Of a DNA stretch of 64,000 nucleotides, positions 53,482-63,981 are shown piece after piece. Every line of letters starts with the position of its first letter. Positions within the stretch are counted from its first letter, which is position 1. The notes below the pieces were generated by a model. The model searched no databases and was not told the DNA's origin. It saw nothing but the letters and a program-made list of their open reading frames with translations. The stretch is taken from NCBI GenBank assembly GCA_963722075.1, contig CAVRJM010000001.1:1280001-1344000 (forward strand), in the 5' to 3' direction. The position numbers were made by a program, and so were the translations under genes. This DNA comes from Candidatus Babeliales bacterium (GTDB lineage Bacteria > Babelota > Babeliae > Babelales > JANWKD01).

Positions 53482-55469
53482 ATGATTAAAAAAGTAATAA
53501 AGAAAAATGAAAGTCACGGTGCTAAAGGTCCTAAAAAGAGTAAAAATCTGATTGAAGAAGAGGCACCTAAAAAAGGTCAAAAAGCGGTATTAAAAGAAGT
53601 TCCGGGTGATGAAGAATCATTTGATCCTACCGCACGCTTAGAAATTAAAAAAGGATTGATTGAGCCTTTATTAGTTAAAGGGAAAAAGCTTGGTTATTTA
53701 ACGTATGAAGAAATTATGGAATTTAGCCATAAGCATCACTTATCTGACCAAGATACCAATTCAATCATGCGTCTTTTTGATAAAGAAAACATTGATTTAT
53801 TAATGCAAGAAGAGCTGGATACTAATTCACCTGATATACATGATTATGAAAAAGATGATGAGCCGCTTAAAAGCAAAAATTTAAAAGAAAAATTTGAAAA
53901 TTCATTAGATATTGATTCTGATGAAGATTTGATTGAGGATGAAGAAGATACAGAAGCGGAAGATGAAGAGCGCCTTGCCGCTATTAAAGAAGCGGTATCT
54001 TCAACGCAAATAGCCGATGGGGTAAAATGCTACTTACGTGATATCGGTAAAATTCCTCTCTTAAATAAGAAAACTGAAACGGTTATTGCTGAGCAGATCG
54101 CTAGTGGTAAAAAAGGATCTATTGAAGCAATTTCAAAATTTCCTTTTATTCATAAAGAATTCGTTTCTATTGGTGAGCGTTTACAAAAAGATTCTATTGC
54201 ACTTAAAGATGTGATTCAATTTTCTGAATTCGATCAAGAAAACTTACCAAAGGTGCAAGAAGAAAAAGATGCCTTACTGGCAACGATAAAAACAATTGCT
54301 GATTTGATTGATAATGAAGAAAAAATATATCGATCATATCGAGGAAAATTGGATACCGATGCTAAAAAGAAAGAGATGCTTGATAAGGTTAAGCAAAATA
54401 AAGAAAAAATTGCACAGACTATTCAATCAATTAAGGTCGCCAATAAACTTATTCGTAAATTAGGTAACCGTATCGAAAAAGCGGTAACTAAAATTAACGA
54501 AAAGAATCATGACATTGATCTGAGCAAAGAGAAAGTTAGTCTCTTACAGCGAAAAAAAGCAGCGCCAGAAATTCAAGCAGAGATAGAAGAACTTGAGCGT
54601 TCAATTCGTTCCTCTCAAAAGATTATTAAAAAATATGAAGGAGAGATGGGATTAAACCAAGATCTTGTTATTAAATATTATACGCAGCTTAAAATAAGTC
54701 AGGTAAAAGATAAACGTGCTAAAGATGATCTTGCTAAAGCAAACTTACGCTTAGTGGTAAATATTGCAAAAAAATATATAAACCGCGGACTCCATTTCCT
54801 TGATCTTATTCAAGAAGGTAATATTGGTTTAATGAAAGCGGTGGAAAAATTTGAGTTTGAACGAGGCTATAAGTTTTCTACATATGCCACTTGGTGGATT
54901 CGTCAAGCAATTACCCGTGCTATAGCAGATCAATCACGTACGATTCGTGTTCCAGTCCATATGGTGGAAACCTTAAATAAGATTAACAAAATTAAAAGAA
55001 TCTTTGTGCAAGAGCATGGCCGTGAACCAACGCATGCCGAGCTTGCTAAAGAATTAAATATTGATGAAAAGAAAATCAAAAATATTATTAAGATCTCTAA
55101 AGAGCCTATTTCACTTGAAACCCCAGTAGGTGATAGTGAAGATGCCTTTATTAAAGACTTTATTGAAAACGAAGATGAATTTTCACCCGCTGATACCGTA
55201 GCAGTAATGATCTTAAAGAACGTGTGCGAGAAGTGCTTAAAACATTAACACCGCGTGAAGAGAAGGTACTTAAAATGCGTTTTGGTATTGACGTAGCGTC
55301 AGAGCATACACTTGAAGAAGTGGGTAAAGATTTCTCAGTAACGCGAGAACGTATTCGTCAAATTGAAGTTAAAGCATTACGTAAATTACGTCATCCATCA
55401 CGAAGCAAAAAATTAGAATCGTTTTTTGATAAAGAATTTGATAGCATTTCAAATGATTCTATTGAATGA
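53482..55469 (+). CDS. rpoD: RNA polymerase primary sigma factor, with an apparent 1-nt deletion near 55203
   Basis: [42 protein letters not shown]. Region 4 ([20 protein letters not shown]) is in the -1 frame; adding one base at gta gca(a)gt aat restores [16 protein letters not shown]. Confidence 0.95.
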
Positions 55470-56821: not shown

Positions 56822-57100
56822 ATGAAAAATGTGTCTGTTGGGATAAGCGATTTTAAGAAACTTATCACTGGAAATTATTATTATGTCGATAAGACACTGT
56901 TAATTAGAGAGCTATTTGAAAGCCCTGGAATAGTACAATTAATTCCCCGTCCGCGTCGGTTTGGCAAGACGCTTAACCTTTCCATGTTAAAATATTTTTT
57001 TGAAAAAACCGAAATTGATAATAGTGGCCTTTTTACGAACACCAAGATTTGGCATGATGAGCAATATAGAAAACTGCAAGGAAAATATTCGGTAATCCTT
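56822..57100 (+). pseudogene. N-terminal fragment of an AAA-ATPase-like/PD-(D/E)XK family protein
   Basis: GISDFKKL....YYYVDKT, PRPRRFGKTLNLSMLKYFF, GKYSVI. Family resemblance stops near residue 93, far short of full-length members. Confidence 0.8.
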
Positions 57101-57483
57101 TATTGGCCGCTGTTAAATAAACTTCTTTTGCATAGTCTTGTGATTGGAAATAATTTTGTTGTTTTGCTTCTGGAAAATATTTTTTATAGAAATCTATGTA
57201 GAGGTCCAATCCTTTTTGGAGCAAATTTATAAATATGGGGTTTGTCAGTTTTTGGTAGTTTGCTTAAAACTTCTGCATAATGGGCATTTACTAATGCAAT
57301 TTGCCGAATACAATCATGTGCTTCAACCGCTTTTTTAAATTCTTCTTGATACAGTTCTTCATTATTTTTAAGTTCTCGTCTCAGTGCAAAATGTTCTTCC
57401 ATAGGATTGCTGCTGGTAATAGGCGTGGATGTGGATTCACAGTCTTGCATGCAATAAGGAGATACAGAAAATAAGATACTCAT
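57033..57483 (-). pseudogene. Hypothetical protein split by a frameshift near 57225
   Basis: ORFs 57184-57483 and 57033-57224 join (KPHIY-x-LLQKGLDLY) if one base is removed from tataaattt. Confidence 0.45.
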
Positions 57484-57560: not shown

Positions 57561-60311
57561 TTATAGAATATTTTGTAACCAAGAATAATGTGGTTGCTTT
57601 TTTAATTTATCCAATTCTTGTTGATGTTCTAGAGATAATTGAGCGCCATATTTTTTTAATATTCTAATAACTTTTCTAACTTGCCTTCGTTCCAAGTAAA
57701 ATTCCATATCCCATCCTTCGTGCATATATTGAATTAGCTCTCGATATTTATTAAGTAATAGTTCTGATTGCAAATTTGAAGAAATGCCATATGAACACAA
57801 TAATTTAATCTTTTTTAAACCATCAGCATCATCGCCAAACGTAAATACTCTTTTTACAAATTCTTCGTCTTGATTATAGCCGGCATCTAAAAATAATTTA
57901 AAAATTTCTTCTTGAGTGTATGATGATAAATTTAGATTAAAATTATCCGCTGATGGCTTGAAATTAAGCACTTCTTTTAAAAAAAGATTAATTTTTGATA
58001 AAGCAGCTTGCGGATTATGATCATGTTTGCTCCATGAAGCCTCAAGCAAAAGTCTATCTATAATTCTATAAGATTGAGCACCCATATTCAGTAATTCTAT
58101 AAATTCAGATAGTTTGTTTTTGTAAAGTGTGTATTCCAATAGATTATATGCAGTCACGGATCCAGGGATATTAGAATTAACGGATTTAGAAAGCTCATCC
58201 GCGATTGTTGTGTTTAAATAATCGCTATTTTCTGCGTTATAGTTAAAAATTCTTTTCAGGGATTCTTTTTGTTCTTGATGGGATATTTGTAACTGCGAAT
58301 GCCGTTTTAACGGTAATAAGTTTTTAAAAATAAGAGCATCAATTAAGTGATTTTCTCCATATTTAAACCTACGAAGTAACGATTTAACCTCGTTAGTATC
58401 TAGAATGATGTCCAATTGTTCTTGTTGAGGTAAATAATAAATAAGCCCATCAATGAATATTTTTTCTTCCCCAGAAAGGTCCTGCCTAAAAATTTTTTTT
58501 AGTAAAGGGATATGATTTTTTAAATACTCCTCAAATCGCTTATCTTTTAAATGAATTTTATAACGAATAATTGCCTTAATGACTGACTCGATAAAATGTT
58601 CATCATTAGGAAGACTTTGCATTAAACTGAATGCTAAATCAAAAAAAGCAGGAGAATGCTTATAATAAAATATCTCATTAATAACCAATAGTGCTTGATT
58701 GGGATCATGTAATGGTTGGCTAATAAAGTAATGATACAAAACTTCGTCAGATGAAGTTTGGCACCGCTCACGTGGATTCAATGCAGTAAGGCAACTTAAA
58801 TTTTGTTTTGTTAACGGATTAAGTTCATAATCTTTTGCATTAAGAAAGGTCAAACAATAAGGAGAGCCATATTTTGAATCTTTTTTTCTTAAATCTTTTA
58901 TAAACGTATGCCCGGGAACGATAGTTAATAGCAATTTATCAGACTGATTCTTTTCAGTTATGGTAATAGTAATGGTATTATGTTTAGCTTCAATATCATT
59001 AACTGGTTGGAATGTTATTTTCCTGCGATGATCAGAAAGAGCTTCACCTAATTCTTGGAAGGTGGTCACCTTTATATTCAACAAGTAATTAAACAGATTG
59101 ATGACATTAATCGCTGATGAACGAATTTCATAATTACCGCGAACATATTCTATAGTTGGACTATCTGAAACGGTATTCATCCATGCTTGGCCGGCACCAC
59201 GTACCAAGGTGCTATCTTTTTGATTATTAACTGAGTCAAAAGAGCAATAATCAATATAAAATTGAATTAATTCTTGACGTGGGCTGATTGTATCGGGGAG
59301 CATTGAAAGGTCAAACGAACTATCCTTATGGTTTACTAATAAACGGTTAAAAATACTCCGCATTGAAGTTTCAAAACAATCCGGTGCTCTGTTTTGTGAA
59401 TCGCCATATGCATAAGCACTTTGAATTACTTGAGGAGGATATACATTTGCATATTGTTCTTTAATAGTAGTAATGATTGTTTGCTCATAATGATCAGTAG
59501 CAAATCCTATAGGATTTGTTTGACTATAATTTTGTTTAAAGTTTTCTAAAAATTCAGCGTATTTTTGTTCTGTTTCATTGGAATAATGGTCAGCTATTAA
59601 TTGTTGCGCATTATTTGATTCTTTAAAAACGGGTAGATGGTTATGAAGTGACTCTAAATATTGTACCGGCTCTTCTTTTTTATTGGCTTTAAGATGTAAA
59701 AAGCCTAACAGTGATGATTGCGTACTATGTGGTAATAAGTGCTTTTTATGTTTGCTTTCCTGGGCAGCTTTTTGTATGGTATCAAGAACGGCGTTAATTT
59801 TAGCTAAACTAGCTCTATCAGCAACTCTATTATGCTCATCTTTCCATTGCTGGGCAATGTTATCTTTCGTTTTATCAAAAGTATTATTCTGTAAGCTTCC
59901 TATAATGGTCCCTACTAGGCGCGGGTTTAATGAGTAACAAGGGTTACTTTTATTTTGAGTTGGCCTAAATTGATCATCGCGCAAGTGGAATAATCCTGTT
60001 TTTTCATCTGATACCAATTTTGTTAATGCATCTTGCTCGCTGCCATACTGATATAATCGTTTTAACCATCCACTTTCAGCGAGCGCTGCACCATGAATAG
60101 GGGAAAAAGGCTTTGCTTCATCAGTAAGCCCATTATAAAGATGCTTTAAGTGATCATGATGGAGTGAGCGGGTTCTGGAAAATGAAAAAGGAGAAAAGGC
60201 ATTAAATAAATTTGAAATAGTTTTTCGAGAACGGGCAGTGATACGACTCATAGCCCAGGCTGCAGGGCTAGTGGATAGTAATAACACTATTAAAAATTTA
60301 TAAAAAGACAT
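57561..60311 (-). CDS. Large exported protein: signal peptide + presequence-like segment, possible Cys-His domain, degenerate ankyrin-like C-terminus
   Basis: aggagg RBS; AAWA|MSRITARSRK; PDCFET and PGHTF; repeated LLxxGA/GY/GI motifs. Confidence 0.8.
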   Translation of the reverse strand: MSFYKFLIVLLLSTSPAAWAMSRITARSRKTISNLFNAFSPFSFSRTRSLHHDHLKHLYNGLTDEAKPFSPIHGAALAESGWLKRLYQYGSEQDALTKLVSDEKTGLFHLRDDQFRPTQNKSNPCYSLNPRLVGTIIGSLQNNTFDKTKDNIAQQWKDEHNRVADRASLAKINAVLDTIQKAAQESKHKKHLLPHSTQSSLLGFLHLKANKKEEPVQYLESLHNHLPVFKESNNAQQLIADHYSNETEQKYAEFLENFKQNYSQTNPIGFATDHYEQTIITTIKEQYANVYPPQVIQSAYAYGDSQNRAPDCFETSMRSIFNRLLVNHKDSSFDLSMLPDTISPRQELIQFYIDYCSFDSVNNQKDSTLVRGAGQAWMNTVSDSPTIEYVRGNYEIRSSAINVINLFNYLLNIKVTTFQELGEALSDHRRKITFQPVNDIEAKHNTITITITEKNQSDKLLLTIVPGHTFIKDLRKKDSKYGSPYCLTFLNAKDYELNPLTKQNLSCLTALNPRERCQTSSDEVLYHYFISQPLHDPNQALLVINEIFYYKHSPAFFDLAFSLMQSLPNDEHFIESVIKAIIRYKIHLKDKRFEEYLKNHIPLLKKIFRQDLSGEEKIFIDGLIYYLPQQEQLDIILDTNEVKSLLRRFKYGENHLIDALIFKNLLPLKRHSQLQISHQEQKESLKRIFNYNAENSDYLNTTIADELSKSVNSNIPGSVTAYNLLEYTLYKNKLSEFIELLNMGAQSYRIIDRLLLEASWSKHDHNPQAALSKINLFLKEVLNFKPSADNFNLNLSSYTQEEIFKLFLDAGYNQDEEFVKRVFTFGDDADGLKKIKLLCSYGISSNLQSELLLNKYRELIQYMHEGWDMEFYLERRQVRKVIRILKKYGAQLSLEHQQELDKLKKQPHYSWLQNIL

Positions 60312-60326
60312 ACAACCTCCTAATTT

Positions 60327-61535
60327 TTATTGCTTCAGTTGATTTAATTGTTTGGTAACTTCCGTAGCCATTTTTTTTAATTCAGGATCATAATTAAAAC
60401 GATCGGGATGAAATTGGCTCACCAGTTTTAAATAAGCGGTCTTAATTTCTTCATCGGCAGTGATATAAGAAAGCCCCACCAGAAGATTTGTATTGAGTTT
60501 CTTATTATTTTTTATTTGGGTAAATAAATGATACACCGCCTGTTCAGTTGAATTTTGGTATTTGTTTTCATCAAAATTAGTGAATTGTTGTGCTGATTCA
60601 TACTTAGCATAGTTTGCAGTATTAGATTGATAACTTTTAGATTCTTGGGCACGGTTTTTTTGTTGAGCGGGTATATCTAAAACATTATATAAATCATGAC
60701 ATTTATTGGTGGTAATAGTTTCTTTACAAATAACGGTTTTATATTCTTCGATATATATTAAATCGCCCTTGCGATATGTTACCCTTTTACATGGTTGCAT
60801 AAGAATGGAAAGTATAACTTCGTAAATATGAACATTCTCGTAGTTATATTCTCGAAGAGCAGCATTACGTGCTTCTTTTATTTCTATATAATATTGAACT
60901 AAATCGCCCGGTTCAAAATAGAGCTGTAATTTTTTTAAAGCACCAATATTGAGTTTGCGTACTGCCAATCGTAATGCTTTTTTATTAAGGCGAGCGCCAT
61001 ATTTTAACAAGGTGCTTATAAGAGCCTCTTGCTTTTCGGGAGAAAGATGTTTGCTTAAAAAGACCGCATGGTCGAGCGCGGTTGATCCCATTACTCCCGT
61101 GCGATGATCAAGACAACTATTAAGTAAGTTGGCATCACGCATTTTTTGTACTAATTCTTCAAATGAAAGATTGGCAAAAAAAGAGCACTCTTTACCTTGT
61201 GTTTTAGCTGCAAAGGCGTCCAAAAGTTCATCATGGTATTGTTGTGTTGATTTAAAGTAGGATTTAACGTGTTCCCATATAGTTTGTTGTGGCTTTGAAT
61301 ATGAAAATAATCTGCGTGGCGCAGGATTAGTAAAAGGAGCTTTTTGTTCATTATTATAGCCAGAAAAAGTCCATAAGGTTCCTAAAAAGATTTTAGATCG
61401 ATTATTGAAAGGGTTAGAAGGCCTAAAAATGCTCGAAAGAGAAGCAGTAGATCTTGGCCTGGTAACTTTATTCATTCCCCAGCTATAGGTAGAAATAAAT
61501 AGAAGGAATAAGATAATAAACTTATAAAAAGACAT
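60327..61535 (-). CDS. Exported protein with an ankyrin-like repeat and C-terminal DnaJ (J) domain
   Basis: YSWG|MNKVTRPRS; GSTALDHAV...LLKYGA; EIKTAYLKLVSQFHPDRF (HPD motif). Confidence 0.82.
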   Translation of the reverse strand: MSFYKFIILFLLFISTYSWGMNKVTRPRSTASLSSIFRPSNPFNNRSKIFLGTLWTFSGYNNEQKAPFTNPAPRRLFSYSKPQQTIWEHVKSYFKSTQQYHDELLDAFAAKTQGKECSFFANLSFEELVQKMRDANLLNSCLDHRTGVMGSTALDHAVFLSKHLSPEKQEALISTLLKYGARLNKKALRLAVRKLNIGALKKLQLYFEPGDLVQYYIEIKEARNAALREYNYENVHIYEVILSILMQPCKRVTYRKGDLIYIEEYKTVICKETITTNKCHDLYNVLDIPAQQKNRAQESKSYQSNTANYAKYESAQQFTNFDENKYQNSTEQAVYHLFTQIKNNKKLNTNLLVGLSYITADEEIKTAYLKLVSQFHPDRFNYDPELKKMATEVTKQLNQLKQ

Positions 61536-61571: not shown

Positions 61572-61686
61572 AAAATAAATTAAAATTTGCTATTTGTCAA
61601 ATAATATAGGATTGGTAGAAAATGGGAGATTTTATTTGTTTTTTTGTTAATGCAAATTGGACAGAAGAAAAGGGTTCTTATAGACT
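61572..61686. promoter_or_regulatory. Divergent sigma70-like promoters
   Basis: Minus strand TTGACA (61600-61595)-17bp-TATTTT; plus strand TGGACA (61658)-17bp-TAGACT (61681). Confidence 0.5.
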
Positions 61687-62913: not shown

Positions 62914-63501
62914 CTAAAAAGTAAAACGAGCTAACTCTATATGAAATCCCTGATTTGAGGAAAATAAAATCAATTCATGTTTTCCCAATAAAAAATTATC
63001 CGAATAGTTTTTTATTGTGGAAGTTAGGATGGGCATGCTTTCTTGTTGGAACTTTCTCAAGTCTTTAGAAAAAGTGTTTTGTAATCGTGCTAGTGTAATA
63101 TGTGGTAAAAAAGCATTTGCATTTTCGTTTTGTCCAAATTGCTGAGTAAACAAAGTATATATATGTGATAAAACAGGCGAAGGTTGGGTTATTATTGCGA
63201 TTACTCCATGCTGCCCGACAAACTCTAATTTTATAGGCGAGCGGTAATCATATAATGAATAGGGCCCATATTGATGCATGTGCGTAGTAATACTATGTTG
63301 GCACTGTTCAATCAAGGCAGGAATCTCCATTTCTTGCCGTGGGCCAAAAAAATATATGGTCATATGCAATTGTTTTTGTAAGCGGATTGTAAGATCATAT
63401 TTTGTTAAAAGAGCTATTAGTTGATGTGCCAATACTTGTTGCAACTCTTTAAAAACTTCTTGATCGTTAAATGAAAGAGCAATGAATACATTTTGGGCCA
63501 T
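62914..63501 (-). CDS. 2H phosphoesterase (ThpR/2'-5' RNA ligase family)
   Basis: N-terminal VFIAL; two HxT motifs LHMTI and PHITLAR. Confidence 0.85.
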   Translation of the reverse strand: MAQNVFIALSFNDQEVFKELQQVLAHQLIALLTKYDLTIRLQKQLHMTIYFFGPRQEMEIPALIEQCQHSITTHMHQYGPYSLYDYRSPIKLEFVGQHGVIAIITQPSPVLSHIYTLFTQQFGQNENANAFLPHITLARLQNTFSKDLRKFQQESMPILTSTIKNYSDNFLLGKHELILFSSNQGFHIELARFTF

Positions 63502-63814: not shown

Positions 63815-63981
63815 GTCATCCTGAGCCGCGTGAGCGGCGTGAGGATCCAGTATAAAAATAAAAAATCAAAATTTTTTTTGAAATTACAAGGAGTGATTTA
63901 GTTACTGGATCCTCACGTCACTTCGTTCCTCAGGATGACATTCGTATGTTTGTCATTCTGAGCGTTAGTGTAAGAATCCAG
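63815..63981. repeat. Three-unit alternating REP-like array (may continue past the window end)
   Basis: 63815-63850 (+, CCT), 63905-63939 (-, CCT), 63952-63981 (+, TCT). Confidence 0.9.

Follow-up and report, generated by a model that had tools for sequence, protein, structure and literature searches.

Organisation of the two genes

The window analysed here is a stretch of 64,000 nucleotides (G000:C1:1280001-1344000) within a 1.47-Mb Babelota (Dependentiae) genome, G000 denoting the genome under study. Members of this group live inside protists, and the RpoD of the genome is closest (57-65%) to records of TM6, Dependentiae and Babeliales. Two neighbouring open reading frames (ORFs) on the minus strand of the window, ORF A and ORF B, encode proteins in which a predicted Sec signal peptide precedes a basic leader resembling a mitochondrial presequence, and ORF B lies 15 nt upstream of ORF A. 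Their parts, in window coordinates, are as follows.

57561..60311, minus strand: ORF A, 916 aa; signal peptide, presequence-like leader, Cys/His domain and helical C-terminal part
60252..60311, minus strand: ORF A predicted Sec signal peptide, residues 1-20, ending A-W-A (sequence and heuristic)
60165..60251, minus strand: ORF A leader, Met21-Ser49, 29 aa, 6 K/R, no D/E; R48-S49 is followed by L50, the first residue of the family domain
58872..60164, minus strand: ORF A family domain, residues 50 to about 480, with residues 271-489 as the likely papain-type core (alignment and model)
57564..58844, minus strand: ORF A helical C-terminal part, variable in the family, with ankyrin repeats in 7 of 35 aligned members
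60327..61535, minus strand: ORF B, 402 aa; signal peptide, presequence-like leader, ankyrin-like middle (a lead only) and C-terminal three-helix J-domain
61476..61535, minus strand: ORF B predicted Sec signal peptide, residues 1-20, ending S-W-G (sequence and heuristic)
61308..61475, minus strand: ORF B leader, about 56 aa (residues 21-76), with 6 R, 3 K, 7 S and a single E; R75-L76 is followed by F77-S78 (motif as defined in the available text of PMC8847149)
60936..61133, minus strand: ORF B middle region, ankyrin-like, a lead only (first ESM Atlas match Ank+DnaJ at 0.87, below 0.9; relative L041 matches Pfam Ank_2 at 1e-7)
60330..60494, minus strand: ORF B J-domain, lacking helix IV (residues about 348-402, HPD at 376-378)

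N-terminal signal peptides and leaders

Signal peptides and cleavage at 20/21 were called using a purpose-written heuristic. By this call both proteins begin, as the original prediction had it, with a 20-aa signal peptide ending AWA or SWG followed by Met21, and show features of Sec export and signal peptidase I cleavage (K5, a hydrophobic core at residues 6-14, and A-W-A or S-W-G ahead of Met21). A recount agreed that residues 21-52 of A (5 R, 1 K, 7 S) and 21-62 of B (4 R, 2 K, 7 S) are basic, Ser-rich and free of D/E, and the RRLFSYS reported in B begins at residue 74. Here, R75-L76 followed by F77-S78 is a predicted site for the mitochondrial processing peptidase (MPP) and then for Icp55, and the relative L040 has R-T-F-S-S at a position comparable to this junction. 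The Icp55 consensus R-X-(F/Y/I/L)-(S/A)-(S/T) is present in the B relatives, partial in B (R-L-F-S-Y) and absent from A (R-S-L-H-H).

The leader as a module in family A

The domain of ORF A was found in 48 of 261 phylum genomes, with 2379 representatives at 50% identity, and the best 150 of the 2379 were used for analysis, including A and the rows used for the profile. Anchoring on the domain start, using a profile free of leader columns, succeeded for 147 of the 150, and 92 had a called signal peptide. These 92 split into 45 in which the domain directly follows the signal peptide and 47 with an intervening leader (at least 12 aa; observed 18-97 aa), 46 of the latter being basic and acid-poor. 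R-x-(I/L/F/Y/V), with the hydrophobic residue as the first residue of the domain, was present at the junction of 36 of the 46 basic leaders, compared with 7.6 in shuffled leaders (maximum 18, 2000 shuffles), and at the anchor of 0 of the 45 leaderless (short-linker) members; the family junction reads Q-K-R-S/T-I/L-Y/H. Fifteen leaders checked by hand (21-74 aa) contained 12.4% R against 3.0% in the domain, and 0.8% D+E against 11.7%. Leader composition is conserved, and leader sequence and length are unconserved and unalignable. Presequences are described in the available text of PMC7723863 and PMC8847149 as 20-60 aa, Arg-rich, acid-poor and cut by the R-2 rule, and by their sequences the family-A leaders fit this description and this rule.

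The genome under study holds two family-A paralogues with a leader and two without, and the predicted cut in A after R48-S49 falls at the exact point where the leaderless paralogues begin. On a 36-row tree the leader label changed 4 times, with at least 2 changes forced; the label is clustered and does not form one clade, so that more than one gain or loss of the leader took place. Unlike the genome-wide count given below, the family-anchored test is strong. Two broken leader-bearing family-A genes were also observed, L264 (G254) and L266 (G249), one interrupted by a transposase-like ORF and one split into 217 + 723 aa.

A family-A clade without called signal peptides

A FastTree tree was computed for 132 of the 147 anchored proteins, the 15 unclassified rows being left out. 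Nested among members with signal peptide plus leader was a clade of 23 (Shimodaira-Hasegawa-like support 99) in which no member had a called signal peptide (0/23) and the leader starts at residue 1 (19-65 aa, R 11.6%, D+E 1.2%, motif in 20 of 23). Of 30 proteins looked up, taxon names were returned for 3, all in this clade, namely two Legionella sp. metagenome-assembled genomes (MAGs) and one Gammaproteobacteria MAG; one clade member compared with the 261 Babelota genomes had no match above 32%. Searches for family-A loci in named genomes, metagenomes and viral contigs, and for a family-A match in plasmids, found none. A further five rows without a signal peptide lie scattered outside the clade and probably reflect wrongly called starts. 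In the Legionellales, effectors leave through Dot/Icm by means of C-terminal signals, and the leader would therefore be a free N-terminus in the host in both lineages, as a presequence must be.

Third family, other secreted proteins and housekeeping controls

A third, orphan family was found in 38 of 261 genomes (in this genome at G000:C1:557373-563998, 1165279 and 1384520; loci L321-L350). Its 37 rows comprised 7 without a 5' end, 5 without a signal-peptide call, and 25 signal-peptide-called members, 12 with a basic Met leader and 13 without. Many of its leaders are followed by a short hydrophobic stretch resembling inner-membrane stop-transfer signals. A Pfam scan of 42 proteins (38 candidates and secreted J controls, and 4 secretion genes) left most candidates without a family. 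Among secreted M48-type metallopeptidases (G000:C1:940036 and 1146031; L139; L199), a basic and then hydrophobic leader is present in some paralogues and absent from others; OMA1 is a mitochondrial M48 protease.

For scans outside family A, a leader rule was defined as a basic, acid-poor leader ending R-x-(F/L/I/Y)-(S/H/Y/A/F/T). The original prediction had named periplasmic housekeeping proteins as the comparison that could count against it, and the same leader was not found there: nine envelope proteins were located in the genome, 6 of them with a signal-peptide call, together with 13 homologues with a call and 2 without, and the rule matched 0/6 and 0/13, respectively (0/19).

Genome-wide background of secreted proteins

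By the heuristic, 552 of the 1290 ORFs in the genome are signal-peptide-like, and 225 of the 552 have Met at the predicted mature start, so that Met21 loses the special standing first given to it. Most of the signal-peptide+Met proteins begin acidic, and 149 of the 225 begin M-E/D/N/Q. The post-signal-peptide Met is a lineage-wide habit, and the basic acid-free leader is the unusual part. In a cultured relative, signal peptides are described on 44% of genes (PMC6561590, available text).

The leader rule matched 10 of the 552, where internal starts would give 3.5, and 7 of the 10 look real; among basic-start proteins the motif was present in 9/37 versus 4.2 in block shuffles (2 of 500). A pooled set of 426 signal-peptide+Met proteins, taken from this genome, from 11 relatives (2.4 Mb) and from 5 RpoD loci, with several stretches centred on known family members and thus not blind, gave 15 matches versus 3.6 expected. 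In the first 200 kb of G005, which has no family-A or B match and is blind in this respect, the rule matched 4 of 17 signal-peptide+Met proteins, with R-A-F-S-T and R-N-Y-S-T among the junctions. The published Icp55 consensus occurred in 8/141 basic-start versus 21/1202 other secreted proteins (Fisher p 0.008; block shuffles 11 of 2000). A weak non-Babelota control (75 loci, 1.19 Mb, GC 61%) contained 74 signal-peptide-like ORFs, with 3 spurious rule matches and 0/7 with Met.

An M-E/D/N/Q start was also counted in 241 of the 426 pooled proteins (background E/D/N/Q 21%). This is the substrate pattern of eukaryotic NatB, and mature effectors may mimic host N-termini in this way, escaping N-degron decay.

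The domain of ORF A

Cys312 was invariant in 35 and in 32 aligned rows, Glu314 was invariant, and His468 was conserved in at least 90%. AlphaFold2 models were obtained for residues 49-620 (mean predicted local distance difference test, pLDDT, 88.9) and residues 271-489 (pLDDT 90.1), in which Cys312 opens a helix and His468 opens a strand. In a wide structural search, every match spanning the modelled core (136-143 residues) was a papain-fold (clan CA) protease, namely USPL1 (7zju; Z 5.4, root-mean-square deviation (rmsd) 4.3, 136 aligned), TssM (8pz3; Z 5.4), streptopain (6ukd/4d8b; Z 5.2), interpain A (3bba; Z 4.7) and USP30 (5ohn; Z 4.5). The search with the whole domain matched the helical tail only. 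No Pfam family was found for the domain, the PDB searched by sequence gave nothing credible, and ESM Atlas gave no match at 0.9 for A or B. Since the papain-fold matches are middling (Z 4.5-5.4, rmsd 4.3-4.6, 8-14% identity) and Foldseek found nothing for the domain, a papain-type hydrolase with Cys312 and His468 as its Cys/His pair is likely on the model, and short of shown. By sequence, the domain would define a new family that counts at least 2379 representatives, some branches bearing the leader and others not.

The J-domain of ORF B and its relatives

ORF B had been described as ending in an HPD J-domain. The HPD is there, at residue 376, but the domain does not reach the Pfam gathering cut-off (PF00226, 23.8 vs 27.8 bits, model positions 12-51 of 63) and stops after helix III. 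H-P-D is invariant in 6 aligned B relatives, between helices II and III, and the best solved-structure matches were generic J-domains (E 0.002 or worse). No Pfam ankyrin match was found on B itself. A genome search for B relatives gave matches in 11/261 genomes, several to the J-domain only or to canonical DnaJ, and a word-indexed homologue search found none among 4758 candidates. The one full-length relative is L040 (34% identity), the others being more distant; L040, L041, L042, L044, L046 and L050 all have a signal peptide and a basic leader, and junctions among the relatives read R-T-F-S-S, R-Y-Y-S-T, R-L-Y-S and R-Y-F-A-T. Four B relatives end in an HPD J-domain stopping after helix III, three of which pass the Pfam cut-off (35.5-38.6 bits).

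When the phylum was searched with the C-terminal J alignment, canonical DnaJ made up most of the matches; 30 rows were classed as canonical and 30 as other. A three-helix C-terminal J-domain was present in 15 secreted proteins, only 5 of which have a leader, these being B and the seeds. Because the short J-domain also occurs on leaderless secreted proteins, it is by itself no sign of a mitochondrial role, and mitochondria-specific mimicry of Pam18 was ruled out on the same ground; judged from these sequences, it is a general effector module. Chances are about even that B engages mitochondrial Hsp70. Two further proteins of this genome (G000:C1:306095-310160 and 1064190-1065518) are secreted, with a full J-domain right after signal peptide+Met and an acidic start, and are likely non-mitochondrial counterparts of B.

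Interpretation of the leader

The leader quite probably acts as a cleavable mitochondrial presequence, taking the secreted protein into the mitochondrion of a protist host. The central proposal of the original prediction, that removal of the signal peptide exposes a presequence-type segment, draws support from three independent lines of sequence evidence, namely the R-2 junction at the domain start, the all-or-none leader in three unrelated families, and the signal-peptide-less clade with its leader at residue 1. Since the leader behaves as a module that hundreds of relatives either have or lack, the bacteria likely send a dedicated protein set to the host mitochondrion, and this set likely includes a predicted protease and a chaperone partner.

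In the proposed route, Sec export and signal-peptidase cleavage would free Met21, the protein would exit by type II secretion or in outer-membrane vesicles, and import by host TOM/TIM23 would be followed by MPP cleavage after R48-S49 (A) or R75-L76 (B). The genome contains two secretins, a type II secretion F gene and pseudopilin genes. Once in the matrix, A would cleave some substrate as a papain-fold cysteine hydrolase, and B would recruit mitochondrial Hsp70 via its HPD to a client held by the ankyrin-like part. Leaderless paralogues, two of which are in this genome, would serve other host compartments. An even chance is given to a broader view, in which the Babelota possess a phylum-wide second address system, a presequence module open to gain or loss and sometimes combined with a stop-transfer segment, which sorts proteases, J-proteins and orphans to the matrix or inner membrane and supplies the organelle proteome like a nucleus, Legionella-like bacteria having acquired one effector and dropped only its signal peptide.

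If the leader were instead a translocation or host-entry motif (RxLR- or PEXEL-like) or a cationic membrane-binding peptide, it would serve to take the protein through the vacuole membrane or into vesicles, with a cut at R-x-L and no mitochondrial role. Some such step is needed for reaching the cytosol, basic leaders could bind anionic membranes, and both leader-bearing family-A paralogues of this genome end R-x-L-H. Across the family, however, the hydrophobic residue varies among I, L, Y, F and V, with no fixed L (17 I, 13 L and 4 Y of 36), about half of each family is secreted without a leader, the leader is kept in the signal-peptide-less clade, which likely uses another export route, and junctions such as R-A-F-S-T and R-T-Y-S-T fit the published Icp55 consensus, which together make a host-entry motif unlikely.

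Somewhat less credible again is a propeptide or flexible linker, which would keep the enzyme inactive before its cleavage, behind the arginine, by a protease of the bacterium or the host. Papain-fold proteases commonly have propeptides, and the cut site would fall exactly at the domain start, but the leader shows no sequence conservation over its range of 18-97 aa, is absent from 45 members, and has the same composition ahead of non-protease cargo (J-proteins, the third family and orphans); for a linker, near-total exclusion of D/E is not expected. Targeting to another organelle is the least credible: a plastid transit peptide would likewise be Ser-rich, basic and acid-poor (PMC7723863, available text) and the host range of the phylum is given as undefined (PMC12172432, available text), but high Arg, Arg in the first residues and the R-2 junction favour mitochondria over plastids (PMC8847149, available text), hosts described so far in the available text of PMC12172432 are heterotrophic protists, and a nuclear or nucleolar address read from the basic stretch is at odds with A and B having no K/R clusters typical of nuclear signals.

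Several observations weigh against a mitochondrial presequence and temper the confidence placed in it, beginning with the distribution of the short J-domain and the middling structural matches given above. Signal peptides, leaders and junctions were all scored by purpose-written rules, and targeting was read from sequence. Type II secretion exports folded proteins and TOM/TIM23 need unfolded ones, and crossing of the vacuole membrane has no explanation in this scheme. In family A, the residue after the junction hydrophobic is mostly Y/H/L/I/V, not the S/A of Icp55; amphipathicity is weak (hydrophobic-moment z versus shuffles over the 15 leaders, mean 0.73, 10/15 positive, A 0.6); and the shuffle counts overstate independence, as family members are kin. 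In the third family 4 of the 12 leaders pass the strict rule, and among the envelope controls one Pal homologue and one secretin begin basic and acid-poor, without the junction. Signal-peptide absence in the clade of 23 was read from protein records without upstream DNA, and at least one other signal-peptide-less row, P0007, is a mis-called start. The 10/552 rule matches compare with a mean of 6.0 and a maximum of 14 in shuffles of the first 90 residues, which makes the genome-wide count alone weak; another 400 kb of G005 gave 0/21 matches; and strict R-x-hydrophobic-S/H was found in 4 of 19 basic acid-free starts versus 1.6 (134 of 2000 shuffles), which is not significant. From the modest counts in G005, for the strict motif and for the Icp55 consensus, the leader-bearing class is small, with a few proteins per genome.

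Gene arrangement and neighbouring features

Two further features accompany the genes.

60316..60321, minus strand: AGGAGG ribosome-binding site in the gap between B and A (sequence)
61572..61600, minus strand: sigma-70-like promoter match, TTGACA-17-TATTTT, upstream of B; weak evidence (24 such sites vs 22.9 in shuffles)

B followed by A is likely one operon, judging from this arrangement. The gene starts had been called near-identical, which holds for the first 18-30 bases (14/14, 17/18 and 23/30 identical, counted from the start codon) but not over 60 bases (36/60). The two proteins match only within residues 1-46 and are unrelated beyond, and recent duplication of one gene from the other was ruled out by the short shared DNA and the unrelated remainder. 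Contigs from three sequencing runs showed no differences in the parts covering the stretch, none spanning it whole.

Elsewhere in the window, rpoD is split (53482-55469, plus strand), with a 588-aa ORF ending ahead of sigma region 4 and that region carried by an 81-aa ORF that overlaps it in a different frame; this is likely an assembly error at about 55230. Just downstream of A (56822-57483) lie a truncated AAA-ATPase-like ORF (PF09820, 2-83 of 201) and a convergent 99-aa ORF, probably gene remnants. Also present are an ATP/ADP translocase (PF03219; 20516-21826, plus strand), with more matches at G000:C1:232249-235023; a 2H-phosphoesterase-like ORF with Pfam matches under the cut-off (62914-63501, minus strand); and an intergenic, imperfect inverted repeat resembling repetitive extragenic palindromes (~63815-63941), with arms of ~37 bp and a similar extra arm after it.

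Significance and comparison with known systems

The sequence rule picks likely mitochondrial effectors from hundreds of orphan secreted proteins in uncultured genomes, effectors that standard predictors would miss because the signal peptide hides the presequence. Presequences repeatedly arising and lost on bacterial genes would offer a natural model for the origin of targeting peptides, and the work contributes a large new family of Cys/His enzymes, with the leader on some branches and not on others. The literature search found no publication that describes, for Babelota or any other bacteria, a presequence placed behind a Sec signal peptide, subscription journals and supplements (including those of PMC6561590) being outside its scope.

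For the mature proteins, the papain-fold proteases USPL1, TssM, streptopain, interpain A and USP30 gave middling matches that span the modelled core of A, and A differs in having no Pfam family or Foldseek match. Pam18/Tim14 and DjlA are class C J-domain proteins with a C-terminal three-helix J-domain; B is like them in that its HPD J-domain is at the very C-terminus and ends after helix III, but it is secreted without a membrane anchor, and the same short J-domain is found on leaderless Babelota proteins.

A cultured relative replicates wrapped in the host mitochondrion, which expands around the bacterium, and appears to shed outer-membrane vesicles, with no mechanism for the expansion named in the available text (PMC6561590). 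The terms 'effector' and 'secretion' are absent from the available text of a 2025 survey of the Babelota (PMC12172432). Already known are bacterial effectors with presequences, and the combination of signal peptide and transit-peptide mimicry in fungal effectors. Ats-1 of Anaplasma phagocytophilum is a type IV effector with a cleavable mitochondrial presequence, imported and cleaved (PMC2824752, available text). The likeness is one of design, a bacterial protein with an N-terminal presequence: Ats-1 is a single type IV substrate with its presequence at residue 1, whereas in A and B the predicted presequence stands behind a Sec signal peptide, restarts at Met, and is found on several unrelated families across the phylum. 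Chlamydia trachomatis, likewise an intracellular bacterium with several proteins bearing mitochondrial-type N-termini, has mitochondrial targeting sequences that MitoProt predicted from native N-termini and that were tested, and three of the proteins were shown to be type III secreted (bioRxiv 10.1101/2022.08.30.505961); the available text of that paper does not contain the term 'signal peptide' and gives no stacked signal peptide and presequence. The stacked design itself, a secretion signal first and an organelle address exposed after its cleavage, is shared with fungal and oomycete effectors, in which a signal peptide is followed by a transit-peptide mimic, mostly chloroplast-directed; according to the available text of the LOCALIZER paper (PMC5353544) such mimicry seems rare, with no exclusively mitochondrial case shown by then. 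Those effectors belong to eukaryotic plant pathogens, whereas A and B are bacterial, Sec-dependent and, on the reading of their leaders as presequences, directed at protists.

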